Part shown: positions 11,041-27,887 of the stretch, piece by piece
Layout of the letters: the number at the start of each line of letters is the position of its first letter
Position numbering within the stretch: the stretch's first letter is position 1
From: a virus
Taxonomy: Duplodnaviria; Caudoviricetes
Virus record (IMG/VR): IMGVR_UViG_3300017903_000590
Location: 1 to 27,887 of that record
Strand: one strand, 5' to 3'
DNA: 27,887 bases
Translations under genes and position numbers: made by a program
The notes under the pieces: model-generated
What the model was told of the DNA's origin: nothing
Database searches by the model: none
What the model saw: only the letters and a program-made list of their open reading frames with translations

Positions 11041-12557
11041 GCAAATATATCAAAGTCCGTATTAGCTGTTGCTTGTTTAAAGTTTGGATTACTTCCTCTT
11101 GTTAGAGCTCTGTGTTCACCACCACCTAACAGTAAATACATATACGCATCACCGACATGGGAATGTTCATTCTTGTTTGGTTGATCTCTAAATCTTTCTG
11201 CTCCAGATACTTGAACTCGTTTGAAGTGATAACCACCACTCAATGCCTTACGCAATCTTTTACACTTACTGTCAATCAATAGACCTGGTTTACCATCAAT
11301 CAATCTATTCATTGGCATTGCACCAGCTTCTCTTCTAACTTTAAAATCGTTAGTGGCAGTTGGTCTAGCAGTTAAACCTATAGACCTTAAATGATCGAAT
11401 GCAGTCACTTCGTAAATCTCATCTCTCTTTTGTCCGGCTGGATCACCCCATACTAATACATCAAACTTTGGATACCTACTAGCTAATTCTGTTTTTAACA
11501 TACTACCAAATCTTTCTAGGCCCATATCAAAAGTTACTAACTCATGTAATACTACCCACCTACCATTAGATAATCTTTGTCCAAAGATAGCTGCTGGAGT
11601 TAAACCAAAGTCAACACCTACTTGAATTGGTACAGATGGATCTGGTTCTAAATGTTCTTGAGACATAATGTTGTCATCGTATTCACTAATAATGGGTTTG
11701 CCTTCTTGGACATAAGTATAAAGGCCCTGGGCATAACATCTTATCCAATCAATATTCTTTCCAAGTAATGTTTGCTCATAGTAGCCAGTCGGTAAATTTT
11801 TTTTATTTTCTGCTTTAGGGTTTGCCATCCACCACTTCTTAGCACTATAGATAAATCCATTTGCTTCCGGGTTTTCTGGTAAATCATCTTTCATGTATTC
11901 AATAACTGCTCCAGGCTGTTTGTAAAACTTCCAGGCATAAGGACCAGACATCTTTTCTTTTTCTGATAATCGATACCACCAATGGTCATCATCCATCGGG
12001 TTTGTATCCATAATAATTCCTCTCCAGGGTTTTGCTCCTCCATCCGATAATGTGGGGTAACGACCAACACGATGCGTAAGACCATCGATAACTGCTTTAG
12101 GTAATTCTCTGGCCTCGTTAACCCACGCACCAGTAAGTTCCATTGATAATAACTTCCTAACATCTTTGGGCTGGTCAAGGGCTAAGAATATTACTTCACA
12201 ATCTATTCCTGGAGCTCCATCTCTAGGTGGTAACTTAATGTGATGCGTTAAGGGAGGGCTCCATCTAAATGGCCCCCAAATGTTCTCTGGAAAAAGTTCT
12301 TGCCATGTTTTTATAGTAGTTGTCCTCAACTCGGGATAAGAGTTACGCACTACAACAAACCTAGAATACTTAATCCCGTCACGAGGACTTTGTACTTGGC
12401 TAACAGCTTTTAACATTATCTCTGCTGCACAGGCATAAGATTTACCACTTCCTACCGGGCCCATCAAACCTCTAACAAAAGATTTATCTTTAAGAAACTT
12501 CCATACTGTAGGTGAAGTAGAAAAGTCTAAATTAAGATTTGTTATTGCATCACTCAT
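11037..12557 (-). CDS. terL: Terminase large subunit
   Basis: Walker A GPVGSGKS, Walker B-like WVNEARE, DTNP coupling motif, nuclease GVDFG and SHVGDA motifs. Confidence 0.95.
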   Translation of the reverse strand: MSDAITNLNLDFSTSPTVWKFLKDKSFVRGLMGPVGSGKSYACAAEIMLKAVSQVQSPRDGIKYSRFVVVRNSYPELRTTTIKTWQELFPENIWGPFRWSPPLTHHIKLPPRDGAPGIDCEVIFLALDQPKDVRKLLSMELTGAWVNEARELPKAVIDGLTHRVGRYPTLSDGGAKPWRGIIMDTNPMDDDHWWYRLSEKEKMSGPYAWKFYKQPGAVIEYMKDDLPENPEANGFIYSAKKWWMANPKAENKKNLPTGYYEQTLLGKNIDWIRCYAQGLYTYVQEGKPIISEYDDNIMSQEHLEPDPSVPIQVGVDFGLTPAAIFGQRLSNGRWVVLHELVTFDMGLERFGSMLKTELASRYPKFDVLVWGDPAGQKRDEIYEVTAFDHLRSIGLTARPTATNDFKVRREAGAMPMNRLIDGKPGLLIDSKCKRLRKALSGGYHFKRVQVSGAERFRDQPNKNEHSHVGDAYMYLLLGGGEHRALTRGSNPNFKQATANTDFDIFA

Positions 12558-13711
12558 CTGATCTCACTAAATATGTGTTTAATTACTTCAACAGTCCATC
12601 CGTTACCTAACATTCTATATCTTTGAGTATTAGATACACCTTCAGTATAACCATCTGGTACAGTTTGTAATCTTTCACATTCTGTTGGTGTTAACTTTCT
12701 ATAATATAATTCTGTGCCTTTATTACCAACACTATCCCATTCATGTCTATCGTAACTACCTCTACCACCAGTTCTAACTGTCTTAGATTTTTCTCTAACT
12801 AATACATTATCTTTTTGTACTGTAGTTAAAGTATTTGTTTTTTCATCATCTCTAATTTCTAAATTTTGTTTAATAGTTCCATCTTGGTCATATCTACCTC
12901 TATATGCACCACATAAAATTTTAGGAATAGATGCTGCTTGAGCAGCTAAAGTTCCACTAGGTTTATCTAGTTTACGGACACGATCTTGTTGCGAGTTATA
13001 TCCTTTACCACTTACATCAAATTGAAAATAAGTAGTTCTTTCTTTTATTCGTTCTGGATTTTTTATTGGAACTAAAGTCATTCCATTATTGCCAGCACCT
13101 TTGTACATAGTAGATGTCATGCACAATGATTTTTCATCTACCTCTTTACAATGTCTTTGATTTCTTTCTGTGTCTTTTAGTGGATCTACATCTTCTAAAT
13201 TTTCTAATATATCTTTTAAGATTAAACCTTTGTCTTGAGGCTGAGTAATATTAGGGATGTTAGTCCAATATAATCTAACTCTATTCTGAGCTGATACCAA
13301 TGCACTATTAATCATAATAGGTTCAACACCTAGATGTTCAGTAATTACATCTTGATACTGTTGTTTCATTCTAACATTCTCTAATAAAAAATATTTAGGT
13401 TTGCATTCTCTTAGTAACCTTACAAACTCAAAAAACAATGCACTTCTAGGATCATCAAAATTTAATTGTCTACCAGCAAAACTAAAACCCTGGCAAGGTG
13501 AACCACCCATTAATAAATCTATAGGTTCTAAATCTTCTGCTTTAACTTTGGTTACATCACCTAAATGGATTGTATTAGGGAAATTTTTTTTTGTAATACT
13601 AATGGCATACTTGTCGATTTCACTTGCATAATATTTATCAACTTTAATACCTAATTGATTTAATGCTATCTGCCCACAGGACATTCCATCAAATAAACTT
13701 AATACATTCAT
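12554..13711 (-). CDS. DNA (cytosine-5) methyltransferase
   Basis: Motif I LFDGMSCG, catalytic GSPCQ, ENV, QNRVRLY, RKLTPTECERLQ and LGNGW motifs. Confidence 0.95.
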   Translation of the reverse strand: MNVLSLFDGMSCGQIALNQLGIKVDKYYASEIDKYAISITKKNFPNTIHLGDVTKVKAEDLEPIDLLMGGSPCQGFSFAGRQLNFDDPRSALFFEFVRLLRECKPKYFLLENVRMKQQYQDVITEHLGVEPIMINSALVSAQNRVRLYWTNIPNITQPQDKGLILKDILENLEDVDPLKDTERNQRHCKEVDEKSLCMTSTMYKGAGNNGMTLVPIKNPERIKERTTYFQFDVSGKGYNSQQDRVRKLDKPSGTLAAQAASIPKILCGAYRGRYDQDGTIKQNLEIRDDEKTNTLTTVQKDNVLVREKSKTVRTGGRGSYDRHEWDSVGNKGTELYYRKLTPTECERLQTVPDGYTEGVSNTQRYRMLGNGWTVEVIKHIFSEIR

Positions 13712-17637: not shown

Positions 17638-17865
17638 ATGTGGTCTCAAATTGTTCATGTTATCAAGAACCAAATAATGACTAAAGTGAATACAGAAGAT
17701 AAACAATATGTTTACAAGGAACAATTCAATATGAGAGAGTTCTTTAAAATGATCCTGGAGGGATTTGTTTTTATCCTATTCATGATTGTGTTATTCGCAG
17801 CAGTCGGTGTCTCATGTCTAATGATAGATAGATGTTATTATTTTTATGTACCAGGAGGATTTTAA
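17638..17865 (+). CDS. Hypothetical membrane protein
   Basis: 75 aa with one hydrophobic helix; AAGGAG SD. Confidence 0.6.
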   Translation: MWSQIVHVIKNQIMTKVNTEDKQYVYKEQFNMREFFKMILEGFVFILFMIVLFAAVGVSCLMIDRCYYFYVPGGF

Positions 17866-17866
17866 T

Positions 17867-18847
17867 ATGAAAGATAGTGGAAGAAAAACTTCTTTAGCAA
17901 GAAAAGAATTAGGTGCTAGTGTTATCGGTTCGCTGATACCTGGCATAAAAGGTTTCATTACTCCAAACGATGTAATGAAGAATGCTCTTAATGAGCATGA
18001 AGGAAAGGAGGCTATCAATGACATAGCTAACAATCCGAAAGTTATTGCTGGTAAGGCATTGGAACCAGCTATAACGCAAATGTTTGTCGATGAATTACAA
18101 ATCCTCGCAGATAATCAAAGGGCCAAATTTAAAATCTCTGTTCCGGAGAAGGCCAACTTGTATTCATTAGACAACGGAAAGCTAGGCAGCTCTCTGGATA
18201 ATCTTTTAACTATTAACAATGGTAGTCTATTAATTACTGACCACACTAATACAGAGAATGTTCTAAGCAAAAGTGGTCCAGTAGAGATTAAGAATTATTC
18301 TGGAGCTGCTAGTGATCCTGTAAATCCATTATACATTTATCAGTTACAACAACAGATGTTATGTACCGGGAGTACCTGGGGTATCATTGTTAGATTGGTA
18401 AAAGGTTGGGAACTACAATACTTTGTCTATCAAAGAAATACTGAGATGTGTAATGACATCATTAATGCAGCAACAGATTTCTGGAATAGATTTGATGGAA
18501 TACTAGAAGGTAAAGACTATTGGTATCCACCAGAAAATACTAAAGAGGCATCAGATATATTTAAAGGTAATGGAGTTAAAGAACCAGTTAACCTGGATGG
18601 TAACAATATGTTGTCTCAACTGATTGATGATTTTATGAAAGCAAGTGAAGATGAGAAGAGAGCCAAAGAAGAAAAAGATGAGGCCTCAAAAGCTATCAAG
18701 TCTATCATGAAAGAACATGAAGTAGTATCTTTTAATGGGTATGTAATTAGTCATACAACAATGACTAGGAAAAAAACTAAAATGGTAGAAGTACCAGGTG
18801 CTGATCCTATAGTAATGAGGAGGTTCAGCATAAAGGATGCAAGATGA
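17867..18847 (+). CDS. YqaJ / lambda-exonuclease family protein
   Basis: LGAS, GKALEP, SSLD, EIKN and YQLQQQMLCTG motifs; probable start MKDSGRK behind AGGAGG. Confidence 0.85.
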   Translation: MKDSGRKTSLARKELGASVIGSLIPGIKGFITPNDVMKNALNEHEGKEAINDIANNPKVIAGKALEPAITQMFVDELQILADNQRAKFKISVPEKANLYSLDNGKLGSSLDNLLTINNGSLLITDHTNTENVLSKSGPVEIKNYSGAASDPVNPLYIYQLQQQMLCTGSTWGIIVRLVKGWELQYFVYQRNTEMCNDIINAATDFWNRFDGILEGKDYWYPPENTKEASDIFKGNGVKEPVNLDGNNMLSQLIDDFMKASEDEKRAKEEKDEASKAIKSIMKEHEVVSFNGYVISHTTMTRKKTKMVEVPGADPIVMRRFSIKDAR

Positions 18848-19112
18848 TAATCAATTCCAATGGTTCAATGCTTATATCACAGCTCGTAAGTACACAGCTA
18901 AAATGCTGCGTGAAAAAATCTTACAAAAGACTGGTTACGATATTGAGCAAGAGATCCTGGAAGAAATTATCGAAGTCATGGGCCAAACAGCTTATGAGTT
19001 TATGCGATTACAACAACAAGTGTTTACAATTAATGTCGTAAAGGAGGACAAAATAAATGACACAGAAAAAACAGACGGAGAAGATGATGACGAAGGACCA
19101 AACTACCACTAA
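18837..19112 (+). CDS. Hypothetical protein with acidic tail
   Basis: 91 aa ORF between the exonuclease and ERF genes. Confidence 0.6.
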   Translation: MQDDNQFQWFNAYITARKYTAKMLREKILQKTGYDIEQEILEEIIEVMGQTAYEFMRLQQQVFTINVVKEDKINDTEKTDGEDDDEGPNYH

Positions 19113-19755
19113 CATTTATACAAAGATGCATAGTGTTATGGCTAATGCTGGTTATGTACAAAAAGAAAAAAGTAAGGGTATGCCTTACACATTTGCAAGT
19201 CACAATGCAATTACAGAAGTAGTAAGTAAGGAACTAATAAGAGTTGGTTTAGTTATCTTACCTTTTGTAAAAGAACATATGCACGATGGCAATCAACACA
19301 AGGTAGTCATGGCTGCTAAGATAATAGACATCGAAACAAAAGAAGAAATTGTTGTCGGTGATTTCCCAGGGATTGGTAATGATAACCAGGACAAAGGTTA
19401 TGGTAAGGCAATCTCTTACGCATACAAATATATCTTACAAAAATTATTTATGTTGGATATTGGAGATGATGAGGAACCAGATCATAACAATGTACCTACA
19501 GAGACAGCAGATCAAAAAAGAAAAATGACTGTGTGGGTTAACACCATGAAACAATCTGTCAACAGAACACTTGAAGATAAAGAGATGACTGATGCAGAAA
19601 AAATTCATGACTTGATTGCACTTGAAAAAGAAAACAAAGCTGCACTTGAGAAGTTAATGGAGCTAGACAAAGGTCAATGGGATATGCTCATGAACTTTAT
19701 TGTTGAGGCTAAGAACAAATTAGGAGGCAAGGATGAGCAATCTAATGCTGACTAA
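19057..19755 (+). CDS. erf: ERF-family ssDNA annealing protein
   Basis: DKGYGKAISYAYKYILQKLF...DDEEPD ERF motif; paired with the YqaJ exonuclease. Confidence 0.85.
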   Translation: MTQKKQTEKMMTKDQTTTNIYTKMHSVMANAGYVQKEKSKGMPYTFASHNAITEVVSKELIRVGLVILPFVKEHMHDGNQHKVVMAAKIIDIETKEEIVVGDFPGIGNDNQDKGYGKAISYAYKYILQKLFMLDIGDDEEPDHNNVPTETADQKRKMTVWVNTMKQSVNRTLEDKEMTDAEKIHDLIALEKENKAALEKLMELDKGQWDMLMNFIVEAKNKLGGKDEQSNAD

Positions 19756-23618: not shown

Positions 23619-25226
23619 TTAGTAATTAATAACTATTACTCCATGATCACCATCTGTTGCGATAGCACCACCATCACCTAAACCACCTCTTTGAGAGGCA
23701 CTTGAATTTGCAACTGTTTGCCCAGAACCTTGATATAATGTTCCATTAGAAACTAGAGTTGGATGTTTGTAGCCAGAGCCACCTCCACCACCACCCATCA
23801 TGTCAGTAGCACCTCCGATATAACTACCACAGCCTCCTCCGTAGTAGCCTCCACCACCACCTCCACCATAGTTAGTGCTTGGATTTTTACCACCCTGTAA
23901 TGCACTACCTTCGGAAGCAGAATTTGTGTTACCAGCATTAGAACCCCCTCCGGTTTGCGAACCACCACCACCTCTAGCAGCCGTATCATAGGTACAGAAA
24001 CCATCTTGTCCGTCAGTACCACCACCAGCACCACCATTATTGTTAGTGCTATTAGTATTTCTAGCACCACCACCTCCACCACCTCCAGCGATTAGAAGTG
24101 AGTTTGCATGAGTGTATGAACCATTGAATATTCCCGATAGTCCACCACCACCCCCGGTGTATCTGTTGTCAGAAGTAGTATTATTTCCACCTCCACCCCC
24201 AAATGCGTCTCTAACTGTTGTGTTTTGATCGCTGTCTTGTCCAGCACCACCTTGACCAACAATCATAATAAGTGATGTAATGCCACTAACATCTATTGTT
24301 CCGACAGCAGAGCCACCTCCACCACCTGGAAAACCAGCCTGCCAACCACCAGCATTACCACCTCCACCTCCGGCACCCCACATATAAGCTGTAATTGATG
24401 TAAGACCTGTAGGTACTGAGAATGTTTGGTTTGAACCAGTATAAGAAAATGTTTGCGTTACTGGTGCTTTAACTGTAATTGAAAATGCTCTATCAGCCGT
24501 TTCAGAATTTGCTGTTGCTCTTAAAGTAAATGAAGAAGTTGTATCTGAACCAACAGCACTTGCTGTTCCTGTAATTGCACCAGTTGAACTGTTTAAAGAT
24601 AATCCAGTAGGTAGCGTACCAGATTGAACTGAATATGTTACTGTGTCACCATCTGAATCTGTTGCTGTTACAGATATAGATATACCACTTCTTGAGCTAT
24701 CATAAATAGTTGCTAAAGAACCACTAGCTGTACTCCAAACTGGACTATTATCTACATTAATTTGATTATCAAGTGTAGCTTCTAAGTTAGAAGGATTAGT
24801 AACAATAACATCATAAGGTTCATTAGCATTTGAAAAGCTAGACCTAGTTTTAGTCACAGTAATTTGCGTACTAGAATTTACTGTTGTTGTATCTGGTGTA
24901 ATTAATGTTCCACCATTATCTCTAAATTTAACAGTAGCACTATTATTAAATAATGAGCCACTAATTACAAAAGTTTGAGTACCACCCAAATCAGTTGCAA
25001 TATTTGTAACATCAATAGAGGTTATTATTGGTGGTGTATCAATAGCTTTAAATACTGTTCCAGTATAATATTCAGCTAATCCAGTTGTGGTATTAAATCT
25101 AATTTGACCAGTCGTGCTGCCTCGTTGAGCAGTTGTACCACTAGCAACTTTTGTACCCTCGGTACCAGTATCAGTTATGTTTACAAATCCTGTTCCTAAG
25201 TCTGCAATAGTTCTAGCTTTAGTCAT
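23619..25226 (-). CDS. Tail fibre / receptor-binding protein 2 (Ig-like plus Gly-rich domain)
   Basis: MTKARTIADL start, GTTAQRG..GQIRFN module, IPT/Ig-like and LPTGLSLN..TGAITG domains, WGAGGGGG Gly-rich C-terminal domain ending GVIVINY. Confidence 0.85.
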   Translation of the reverse strand: MTKARTIADLGTGFVNITDTGTEGTKVASGTTAQRGSTTGQIRFNTTTGLAEYYTGTVFKAIDTPPIITSIDVTNIATDLGGTQTFVISGSLFNNSATVKFRDNGGTLITPDTTTVNSSTQITVTKTRSSFSNANEPYDVIVTNPSNLEATLDNQINVDNSPVWSTASGSLATIYDSSRSGISISVTATDSDGDTVTYSVQSGTLPTGLSLNSSTGAITGTASAVGSDTTSSFTLRATANSETADRAFSITVKAPVTQTFSYTGSNQTFSVPTGLTSITAYMWGAGGGGGNAGGWQAGFPGGGGGSAVGTIDVSGITSLIMIVGQGGAGQDSDQNTTVRDAFGGGGGNNTTSDNRYTGGGGGLSGIFNGSYTHANSLLIAGGGGGGGARNTNSTNNNGGAGGGTDGQDGFCTYDTAARGGGGSQTGGGSNAGNTNSASEGSALQGGKNPSTNYGGGGGGGYYGGGCGSYIGGATDMMGGGGGGSGYKHPTLVSNGTLYQGSGQTVANSSASQRGGLGDGGAIATDGDHGVIVINY

Positions 25227-25611
25227 TTGTTACCTCCACCCATCCCTGGGTATTATCACTTTGATATAATTCTTCATCCCATACATATCTTCCATCTGGT
25301 TTTACAATAGGAGCTTCCCATAAACAAGTCGTTTCATTAAGTGTCCAAGATGCAAATGGTTGTGGTGAATAAAATGCATCTCTTGTTTGATCGTAAATAT
25401 ATCCGATACCAGCAAAGTTTTTTCTAAGAGCTTTTGATTGATCTGTACTAGGTGTGTTTGTATTAGGTTGGTAATGTGTTCCCCCTCTTGTATTGTACGA
25501 TGTTTGTATCCATTCACCTGGACTGTCATCAACAAAATTATTGAAAAATTCTGCTTCAGCAACAATCACTTTAATAACTTTTCCGTCTAATACTTTTGCA
25601 TAATGTGCCAT
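25219..25611 (-). CDS. Tail fibre-associated protein (possible chaperone)
   Basis: MAHYAKV...WIQTSYN...RKNFAGIGYIYD..RDAF..PQPF.SW.L....WEAP family, commonly next to Gly-rich fibres. Confidence 0.75.
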   Translation of the reverse strand: MAHYAKVLDGKVIKVIVAEAEFFNNFVDDSPGEWIQTSYNTRGGTHYQPNTNTPSTDQSKALRKNFAGIGYIYDQTRDAFYSPQPFASWTLNETTCLWEAPIVKPDGRYVWDEELYQSDNTQGWVEVTND

Positions 25612-25620
25612 TTGCCTATC

Positions 25621-27887
25621 CTATAATTGATACCTTATAATTACAATACCAGAGCCACCGTTTGCTCCACTTGAACCACCACCGCCGCCTGTATTTGCTG
25701 AACCTGCTGAACCGTTGTTACCGCCTCCGCCAGAACCACCGTTTCCACCTGTTCCGCCGTTAGTGTGTCCACCACCACCGCCTGCGTATGTTACAGATGA
25801 ACCAGTAATAGAATATGCTAATCCGTCACCACCGTCACCTGCTCTAAATGTTGACCCATATACTGATAAAGGTGATTCACCCACTTCACTAGCTCCGCCG
25901 CCGCCGCCACCACGAAATTGACCTGAAACATTAAATCCACCATCACCGCCTGCAAAACCTTGACCAGATGTTCCTGCACCTCCTGCACTCGATCCACCTG
26001 CGGAAGTGTTACCACCACCTCCACCGCCAGAGCCGCCAGAATTACCTTGACCAGTACCATTTCCAGGGTAGCAACCACCAGAACCGCCACCAACAGCAGT
26101 TGTTAATGACAAACTTCCTACAGAACTATTACCACCATCTGTATTTGTTCTTGGCGCATAAGTAGGTGAGCCAGTACCACCTGCTCCAACTGTTACTGCA
26201 TAAGTACCAGAAGATATTGAAACTGCTGAACCTGTAGGTGTTTTAGGTGTTTCTGCTCCATAATAAATAAGTCCACCTGCACCTGCACCACCACCTTCAC
26301 CACCGCTAGAACCTCCGCCGCCACCTCCTGCAACAATCAAAATTTCTGCTGATAACGCAGTTGATGTTACAAAGTTAGCAGATGAAGTAAAACTATGTAT
26401 TCTATATCCACCAGAATTTGAAATAGTACCGCCTGTTGGTAAAGCTAATACTGTAACACTTTGTGTGCCAGAACTAGCATTATCACTATTAGTAACTTTA
26501 ATAGTTACTGTATCACCTGCTGAAACAGCACTATCTAATGCACTTGGTGTTGTAACTGTAGCCGAAGTATCACTTGATGGTGTTACTGTCACTGTTCTAT
26601 CAGTTGAACTGTGAGTAAAAGTAACTACTAAATTAGAAGTTAAAAATCCAGTACCTGCTAAAGTAAAAGTTGTTGATGTTGCTGCGTAGTAATTTCCAGT
26701 AACACCAGTTAATGTAGGAATAACTGAAGAAACTTTATACCATGTAGAACCATCAGAATACATTACTGCTGCTTTATCAGTATCGTATCTTATTTGACCT
26801 GCATCTGCTGATGGCTGTTGTGCTGTTGAGCCTACTGGCAATCCAAATGAAGTATTGTTTGCTCCTAAATCTATTGTGTTTCCATTACCATCCAGGTCAG
26901 CTCCTAATTGTGGAGATAGATCCGAAACTAAATCTGTATTAACTGTAGCCCAGGATGAATTAGTTCCATCAGTAGTTAAAAATTTACCAGCATTACTTGT
27001 TTGTGTTGGTGTAATCTCATCAAAACTTTTTGGTACAAAATTTGTTCCATCGTATCTTAATAAATCATTAGTTGCTAAACCAGTTGTGTTTACATCATTA
27101 GCATCATTAATAGAAAAGTTTGCAAGTTCAAATGTTCCATAGGCCACGATTTGTAAAATATCATTTAGAGCAGCTCCAGAATTTAGGACCACACTTGTAC
27201 CATTAGTAGCGACATAGTCATTGGATGCACCCGAAACTAATTTTATTCCGTTTAGATAAATGTCAACAAACCCGGCATCGTAGGATAAAGTGTTTGAATT
27301 ATCATCAGAACCACTAAATGTAGTTTGTCCAGCAGTTGCTGTGTATTGATACCTCTGTGCAGTTCCGTTAACAGCAGACGCAGCCGTAATCCACCCGGAT
27401 GACGAATAGACTTTCATTACATTGTTTGTTGTGTCAAACCATAAATCTCCAATATCAAGACTTGTTGTTGGAGCTGTTGCAGAAATACGATAAGTCTCAG
27501 CAAAATTATTTACATCACTAAGATTTGTAGCAACTGTATTAACATTAGTTATTGAACCTCCAACATTATTAACATTAGTAATATTAGTAGCTACTGTATT
27601 TATACTAGAAATATTTGTAGTTACTGTATTTATATTACTAATTGATCCAGCAACAGTTGTTATATTAGCATCATTACTTGCTACTGTAGTTACATTACTA
27701 GAAATACCAGAAACAGTAGAAATATCAGAGCTTATTCCAGCAACTGTTCCTATATTGTTTGTTGGTGATATTTGACCAGCGACTGTTGTAATGTTTGTAT
27801 TATTATTAGCAACAGTATTAATATTAGTAGAGTTAGAGGCTACAGTATTAATATTTGACTGCATCGCTGCAACAAAAGTAACATTTC
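25621..27887 (-). CDS. Tail fibre / receptor-binding protein 1, 5'-truncated by the window edge
   Basis: Frame stays open beyond the tracked Met at 27864; 10-aa repeats, GDLWFD, ATAGQTTF...VDIYLNGIKL, DLSPQLGADLD, and a Gly-rich tip ending GSGIVIIRY. Confidence 0.88.
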   Translation of the reverse strand, partial: NVTFVAAMQSNINTVASNSTNINTVANNNTNITTVAGQISPTNNIGTVAGISSDISTVSGISSNVTTVASNDANITTVAGSISNINTVTTNISSINTVATNITNVNNVGGSITNVNTVATNLSDVNNFAETYRISATAPTTSLDIGDLWFDTTNNVMKVYSSSGWITAASAVNGTAQRYQYTATAGQTTFSGSDDNSNTLSYDAGFVDIYLNGIKLVSGASNDYVATNGTSVVLNSGAALNDILQIVAYGTFELANFSINDANDVNTTGLATNDLLRYDGTNFVPKSFDEITPTQTSNAGKFLTTDGTNSSWATVNTDLVSDLSPQLGADLDGNGNTIDLGANNTSFGLPVGSTAQQPSADAGQIRYDTDKAAVMYSDGSTWYKVSSVIPTLTGVTGNYYAATSTTFTLAGTGFLTSNLVVTFTHSSTDRTVTVTPSSDTSATVTTPSALDSAVSAGDTVTIKVTNSDNASSGTQSVTVLALPTGGTISNSGGYRIHSFTSSANFVTSTALSAEILIVAGGGGGGSSGGEGGGAGAGGLIYYGAETPKTPTGSAVSISSGTYAVTVGAGGTGSPTYAPRTNTDGGNSSVGSLSLTTAVGGGSGGCYPGNGTGQGNSGGSGGGGGGNTSAGGSSAGGAGTSGQGFAGGDGGFNVSGQFRGGGGGGASEVGESPLSVYGSTFRAGDGGDGLAYSITGSSVTYAGGGGGHTNGGTGGNGGSGGGGNNGSAGSANTGGGGGSSGANGGSGIVIIRYQL
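27499..27887 (-). repeat. About 12-13 degenerate 10-aa (30-nt) repeats in the fibre shaft
   Basis: Consensus [ST]N[IV][NT]TVA[GST][NS]I, e.g. SNINTVASNS TNINTVANNN ... TNVNTVATNL. Confidence 0.85.

Follow-up and report, generated by a model that had tools for sequence, protein, structure and literature searches.

Why should the distal part of a single tail fibre gene be crowded with short restriction-like motifs that the rest of the same phage sequence scarcely contains? The window examined here is the complete 27.9-kb contig (27,887 nucleotides) of a marine podophage, in which profile searches identified genes for portal, capsid, terminase, tail nozzle, C5 methylase, serine recombinase, YqaJ/RecE-like exonuclease, Erf, and lysis, together with two fibre genes separated by a gene of 130 aa. 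The sequencing runs that contain window sequence are seawater metagenomes. The nearest isolate is the OM43 phage MEP301 (capsid, 66%; portal, 64%; terminase, 68%), with a similar gene order; membership of the MEP301 type, as described in PMC8024684, entails at least 40% of genes in common with MEP301 and at least 25 kb of sequence, and MEP301 shares 16 of the 44 window genes by tblastn, which lies below the 40% rule. Because the contig is incomplete and the shared fraction too low, we term the window MEP301-related only. MEP301 differs from it in showing weaker avoidance (105 CCGC and 108 GANTC sites) and in carrying different fibres. The genes needed for the argument are as follows.

25621 to 27887, minus strand: tail fibre 1 gene (phrog_21412, tail fiber; phrog_2295), its 5' end cut by the contig end
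25219 to 25611, minus strand: 130-aa partner gene (phrog_7759) of the resident type (81% aa identity to the site-avoiding relative L025; 53-66% to non-avoiders)
23619 to 25226, minus strand: fibre 2 (He_PIG and ALK_LTK_GRD), the internal control, with no CCGC and a few isolated exceptions
12554 to 13711, minus strand: C5 cytosine methylase (PF00145)

Since fibre 1 is truncated by the contig end, the 747 aa read from the first ATG at 27864 are a partial product, the full length in relatives being 1045 to 1166 aa. The methylase gene contains no avoided motif; it is absent from several relatives, and others have a 28% identical one instead.

Computed counts bear out what the initial annotation had reported from a manual scan, namely, that some 19 CCGC/GCGG sites are confined to distal fibre 1 and that the lone GCGC and one of two GANTC sites lie there also. 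CCGC occurs 18 times and GCGG once, all between 25682 and 26429 and nowhere else in the window; the sole GCGC is at 26154, and the GANTC sites are at 24655 and 25874. The backbone is without, or nearly without, ACGT, CGCG, GANTC, CACTG, CCTGA, CCTGC, ACCGT, GGGAC, and many six-base palindromes, and about twenty short restriction-like motifs are avoided in total. Positions 1 to 23618 hold zero ACGT, CCGC, GCGC, CGCG, GANTC, ACCGT, and GGGAC and lack many six-base palindromes; AGATCT, CAGCTG, GGATCC, and GAATTC are missing from the same region yet found in most relatives. Against a null built by codon resampling at backbone codon usage (100 runs for the backbone, 1000 for the fibre 1 tip), backbone genes had 0 CCGC/GCGG sites versus a mean of 19.3 (minimum, 10), the fibre 1 tip had 19 versus a mean of 6.4 (maximum, 16), and the fibre 2 tip had 0 versus a mean of 5.9. 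Under-representation is strong beyond codon and dinucleotide bias, the pattern by which restriction-site avoidance is recognized. The fibre 1 tip also carries CCTGC 11 times (null maximum, 9) and ACCGT four times, the latter count being within the codon null and notable only against zero elsewhere.

A compositional effect of a glycine-rich protein, with no transfer of DNA, would be the simplest account, in that 17 of the 19 sites are GGC-GGN, that is, Gly-Gly codon pairs. We regard this account as almost certainly wrong. GGC stands before Gly in 17 of 47 cases in the fibre 1 tip versus 0 of 51 in fibre 2 (Fisher p, 6e-7); over twelve Gly-rich genes of the site-avoiding lineage the figure is 12/501, and it falls to 2/415 in the ten that we classed as resident after the counts had been seen, the others being those of L023 (3/46) and L102 (7/40). 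With the codon null exceeded as well, the earlier claim that glycine content does not explain the pattern holds, and the sequence mosaicism described below is independent of motif counts.

The avoidance itself is shared by relatives. In all 37 loci with a phosphoesterase identity of at least 75%, the counts of CCGC, GANTC, CCTGC, ACCGT, CACTG, and CGCG are zero or close to it. Exceptions were counted in 19 loci, obtained from 33 avoider-lineage loci by removing 14 near duplicates; ten more were left out because they were short, came from a contig already represented, or nearly duplicated a locus in the count. Of 46 motif exceptions, the fibre cassettes (57 kb) held 42 and the backbone (169 kb) held 4, a length-based comparison that overstates significance for CCGC and CCTGC because cassettes are Gly-rich, and at least one exception was present in 9 of the 13 loci whose cassette exceeded 1.5 kb. 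Observed and expected backbone counts were 0 versus 545 for GANTC, 1 versus 242 for CACTG, 0 versus 154 for CCTGC, and 3 versus 105 for CCGC. Independent footprints are visible in the cassettes of L102 (2018-2366; 8 CCGC), L130 (5900-7883; 11 CCTGC), and L023 (4681-6082; 4 CCGC). Restriction-site avoidance in phages is already in print (PMC6286503; PMC8594841), as is GANTC depletion in pelagiphages (PMC9516812), and the window resembles the cases described in PMC6286503 and PMC9516812 in its near-complete, lineage-structured loss of type II-like sites, GANTC among them; it differs from what those reports describe in that some twenty motifs are affected at once and the exceptions are confined to the fibre cassette.

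Not every close relative avoids these sites. Thirteen of 38 loci with a capsid identity of at least 84% are non-avoiding, with 21 to 88 such sites each; non-avoiding close relatives with capsids 86-95% identical are L293, L295, L296, L301, L302, and L310-L314, and in the capsid tree L293, L296/301/302, and L310/312/313 are nested among avoiders. Avoidance has therefore been gained or lost within the clade, and perhaps switches along with the host.

It is improbable, in our estimation, that the motifs were lost through methylation-driven mutation instead of restriction, leaving the tip sites harmless and decaying neutrally. Such a process would fit the genome-wide shortage of CG (ratio, 0.38), the presence of a C5 methylase gene in the phage, and the description of Pelagibacter GANTC as methylated mostly without a partner nuclease (PMC9516812); however, relatives without the window's methylase avoid the motifs equally, the products of deamination are not in excess (CTGC, 1.12; ATGT, 0.94; GTGC, 0.74), and near-absolute zeros over 169 kb, many of them for non-CG motifs, point to selection. 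The phage's own methylase was also considered as a cause of avoidance and rejected, there being no match to it in the equally avoiding L111, L115, L126, and L149, which cover both flanking terminase genes.

Alignment with relatives divides fibre 1 and its border into the following parts.

26900 to 27887, minus strand: resident shaft of the avoider-lineage type, with no core avoided motif (171/181 nt to L024 over 26950-27130; 380/441 to L025)
26860 to 26950, minus strand: conserved hinge motif PQLG-x-DLDGNGNTIDL, the putative left crossover (about 26890), where identity switches from L024 to L171/L033
26410 to 26860, minus strand: probably imported beta-rich spacer domain with three CCTGC and one CACTG (420/451 nt to the non-avoider L171; 411/451 to L033)
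25621 to 26439, minus strand: probably imported Gly-rich tip, the predicted receptor-binding domain (Pfam PF21722, Gly_rich_2), with all 19 CCGC/GCGG, 11 CCTGC, and 4 ACCGT sites and the only GCGC
25600 to 25660, minus strand: conserved junction of fibre end and partner start, the putative right crossover from alignment; L025 matches 25211-25659 at 79%

The shaft is 94% identical to that of the site-avoiding relative L024. The spacer, which had no Pfam match and which may be Ig/IPT-like, follows L171 and L033, members of another group whose 2367-aa virion protein is 33% like that of the SAR11 phage Baldr and whose loci carry 54 to 67 CCGC each. The tip parts from L171/L033 at about 26375 and agrees with the protein P0123 at 237 of 250 aa, versus 136/250 for L033 and 120/250 for L024. 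P0123 (520 aa), compared here as a protein, matches the window fibre at 20/145 in the shaft region and at 104/130 in the spacer. At its N-terminus it is similar to fibres of the Bcep22 type and has 68-74% likeness to those of a third group, itself non-avoiding, in which the capsid had no significant match to the window capsid. Adjacent parts of one gene thus have different closest relatives, as in a mosaic fibre. In quick trees of 11 rows, with groups named after the identities had been seen, the shaft rejected a grouping of the window with L033 and L171 (p-AU, 0.0036) that the spacer supported at 99, so the shaft and the distal part do not share one phylogeny. A sister phage (capsid, 98%) shares this shaft but ends differently, with no Gly-rich tip. 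The hinge (26949-26860) is 71-86% identical to both parental types, and on the right the border falls within the final codons of fibre 1, where the stop/start junction is conserved.

Because the distal 1.2 kb matches non-avoiding phages and the rest is without the motifs, a recent swap is the likely explanation: very probably, this segment of fibre 1 (about 26890 to 25660) was exchanged by homology-guided recombination, with the donor's predicted restriction sites retained. The foreign origin proposed in the initial annotation is therefore upheld by an avoiding genome whose shaft and distal fibre have different closest relatives, but its geometry needs revision. A boundary had been placed at about 26432, whereas the main left crossover lies near 26890, some 450 bases upstream, and avoided motifs continue past 26432 (CCTGC at 26516, 26654, and 26798; CACTG at 26590); the last CCGC marks the onset of Gly-Gly pairs, not the left edge of foreign DNA. 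A second discontinuity, at about 26410-26375, does lie close to the earlier boundary and may be older than the import. Neither a repeat nor a recombinase site was found at the TGG boundary that had been suggested as the point of recombination, and the drop in coverage anticipated at about 26430 did not appear, which fits a real mosaic.

This evenness of coverage also bears on whether the contig is an assembly chimera of two phages joined at conserved motifs, which we consider very improbable. It is a metagenomic contig with a crossover inside a shared motif, and the bridging contigs come from one study that is possibly the window's own source; against this, a contig of run X3 covers 26139-27039 with 0 differences at a depth of 7.4 (neighbours, 6.8-7.9), and one of run X1 covers 25192-27604 at a depth of 17.4 versus 17.5. 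Both junctions are bridged at flat depth, no stop interrupts the fibre 1 reading frame, and footprints of this kind recur in relatives. At 27262-27522 in the shaft there is a cluster of sites where the X1 and X3 contigs differ from the window, matching it elsewhere (among the matches listed); this is a polymorphic patch within the population. Runs X5, X7, X10, X11, X13, and X19 (of which X10 and X11 are apparently a single data set) yielded backbone or fibre 2 pieces but, at the likeness applied, no long stretch of the module; since contigs show presence only, we give this absence no weight.

The donor was sought directly. For the Gly-rich tip, no donor DNA was found in IMG/VR (two query sequences), in phage isolates, or among the matches listed in the metagenome scan (39 of 64 parts), and the best nucleotide matches among the loci compared were about 70%. 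That two imports took place, a hinge and spacer from an L171/L033-type phage, followed at about 26410-26375 by a tip from a phage of the P0123 type, is a possibility to which we give somewhat less than an even chance. The spacer is nearest to L171 (93% nt) and the tip is not, and the tip is 95% identical to P0123, whose spacer is the poorer match; but P0123, L171, L033, and the window fall in one spacer sub-lineage (SH-aLRT 90, not starred), so that one unsampled donor already carrying the two parts would be equally simple, and avoided motifs persist on either side of 26410-26375. The immediate donor might instead have been a close non-avoiding member of the same clade and not a distant phage group, which we think doubtful. 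With 13 of the 38 close capsid relatives non-avoiding, import through such a relative is possible, and those nested among avoiders would have long homology available; the best matches to both parts nevertheless come from groups that, over the stretches compared, share little with the window beyond fibre, partner, and holin genes; the loci used from the non-avoiding close relatives cover genes other than those for fibres.

Whichever donor supplied the 1.2-kb segment, the direction of transfer can be read from codon pairs. The share of GGC before Gly in the tip does not differ from that in seven donor-group fibres (147/348; p, 0.53), and this donor-like share places the direction as into the avoider and suggests that few tip sites have been purged since import. 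The series runs from about 36% in the window tip through 18% in L102 and 7% in L023 to 0-2% in residents. As a weak hint, the module has fewer ACGT, CTGCAG, and CCTGA sites (0, 0, and 1) than four modules of the donor type (0-3, 1-3, and 3-8), which may reflect some purging or an intermediate donor. Of the earlier claim of recent acquisition, import into an avoiding genome with little or no purging stands, whereas "recent" rests on an uncalibrated purging rate; at 93-95% identity, the immediate donor is unsampled. Fibre 2 has isolated exceptions of its own (GANTC at 24655, CCTGC at 24338, TGATCA at 23644, GGTACC at 25161, and ACAGGT at 24405), possibly the remains of an older import that has been mostly purged.

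Two window genes are candidates for the recombination machinery.

17846 to 18847, plus strand: YqaJ/RecE-like exonuclease (phrog_434, E 6e-30; PF09588, E 8e-4, under the cut-off)
19057 to 19755, plus strand: Erf single-strand annealing protein (PF04404, E 6e-17; phrog_155)

The lineage has probably lost its type II restriction-like motifs, about twenty of them, under selection by hosts that as a population carry many restriction systems. We suggest that, during co-infection, homologous crossovers in the two fibre motifs that are conserved then exchanged the resident distal module for the imported one; the phage's own Erf/YqaJ pair may have carried this out. An Erf/Rad52-like recombinase would be compatible with the product, in that an annealing protein and an exonuclease are encoded and residual homology is present at both borders. 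Erf with its exonuclease is described as recombining 78% identical DNA efficiently (PMC3945230), and the mosaics attributed there to Rad52-like recombinases (Erf, Red-beta, and RecT) likewise have borders in conserved, partly diverged DNA; unlike the 800-base test substrate of that report, the homology arms in the window look much shorter, and with Erf a candidate enzyme, RecA could also have acted. An invertase shufflon of the Gin/Cin type, or another site-specific switch, was rejected: both fibres are on one strand, and of three weak inverted pairs none flanks the module. The serine recombinase is more than 6 kb from the fibre module. The new Gly-rich tip would either change or preserve receptor binding, the retained sites would cost fitness only in host strains with matching enzymes, and synonymous changes would remove them over time; were restriction systems distributed patchily across host strains, survival with 19 CCGC sites would be no surprise.

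The putative receptor-binding role of the tip accords with its family. It matches Gly_rich_2 at 59.2 bits (cut-off, 24.3), the top Atlas clusters are all viral Gly_rich_2, and a phmmer search of the PDB gave no match; a single-sequence fold model reached a pLDDT of only 35.5. In the fibre of phage Pam3, variable distal loops of the Gly-rich domain have been proposed to bind the host (PMC9608196), and the window tip, like the TNF-like/glycine-rich tip of Pam3 gp24, S16 gp38, and the ALK/LTK domain as treated in that report, consists of C-terminal Gly-rich repeats with variable loops and, like the gp24/gp38-type tips, is followed by a small partner gene, although its likeness to the Pam3 fibre is drawn from a weak profile match (E 0.012). 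A matching partner-gene start lies behind 49 of 50 Gly-rich tips checked, a placement from which the product could be a chaperone or cap. The phrog_7759 family occurs across Roseobacter, OM43, SAR11, cyanobacterial, and freshwater phages.

Exchange of host-recognition modules between unrelated phages has been described for Alteromonas phages A5 and V22 (PMC10579305), where, as here, a distal fibre module and a small downstream partner are common to distant groups under different N-terminal anchors. In contrast to the A5/V22 case as reported, the partner gene in the window stayed resident, the crossovers fall within the fibre gene, and it is motif content that gives the direction, our evidence being sequence only. 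Fibre swapping is itself textbook; broken avoidance as a marker is the useful part, not a new system. In the open-access literature, supplements aside, we found no paper that maps fibre imports by broken site avoidance.

The host is indicated less directly. Capsid matches in GTDB bins are scattered across unrelated taxa. Three SAR11 phages resemble the window in being without CACTG, GCGC, and CGCG, and most motifs with a zero count in the window are also absent from the Pelagibacter phage Baldr, although it tolerates CCGC, CCTGC, GANTC, and GACCC; MEP301 and the Roseobacter phage CRP-143 hold CACTG and GCGC freely. Among these five genomes, the motif profile would hint at a SAR11 host. In Baldr (L290), the cassette at 24713-25630 contains its sole CACTG (25079) and one of its two ACCGT sites (25239).

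We offer, tentatively and as something less probable than not, a wider reading: that the host is probably SAR11, that the forbidden motifs are a readout of hidden and diverse host restriction systems, and that each fibre swap pays a restriction toll, with the residual sites serving as fingerprint and clock; the set of motifs broken in the window (CCGC, CCTGC, GANTC, and GACCC) is the set tolerated by Baldr, which would imply a shared-host exchange network of at least three podophage groups. The part most worth following is the recurrence of the footprint across the clade. With so few of the motifs in the backbone, one contig is enough to locate imported DNA, to give it a direction, and to rank it roughly by age. 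The trade-off between a new receptor domain and new restriction targets thereby becomes testable, and methylomes from candidate hosts can be searched for the listed motifs, the marine phage group concerned being common but uncultured.
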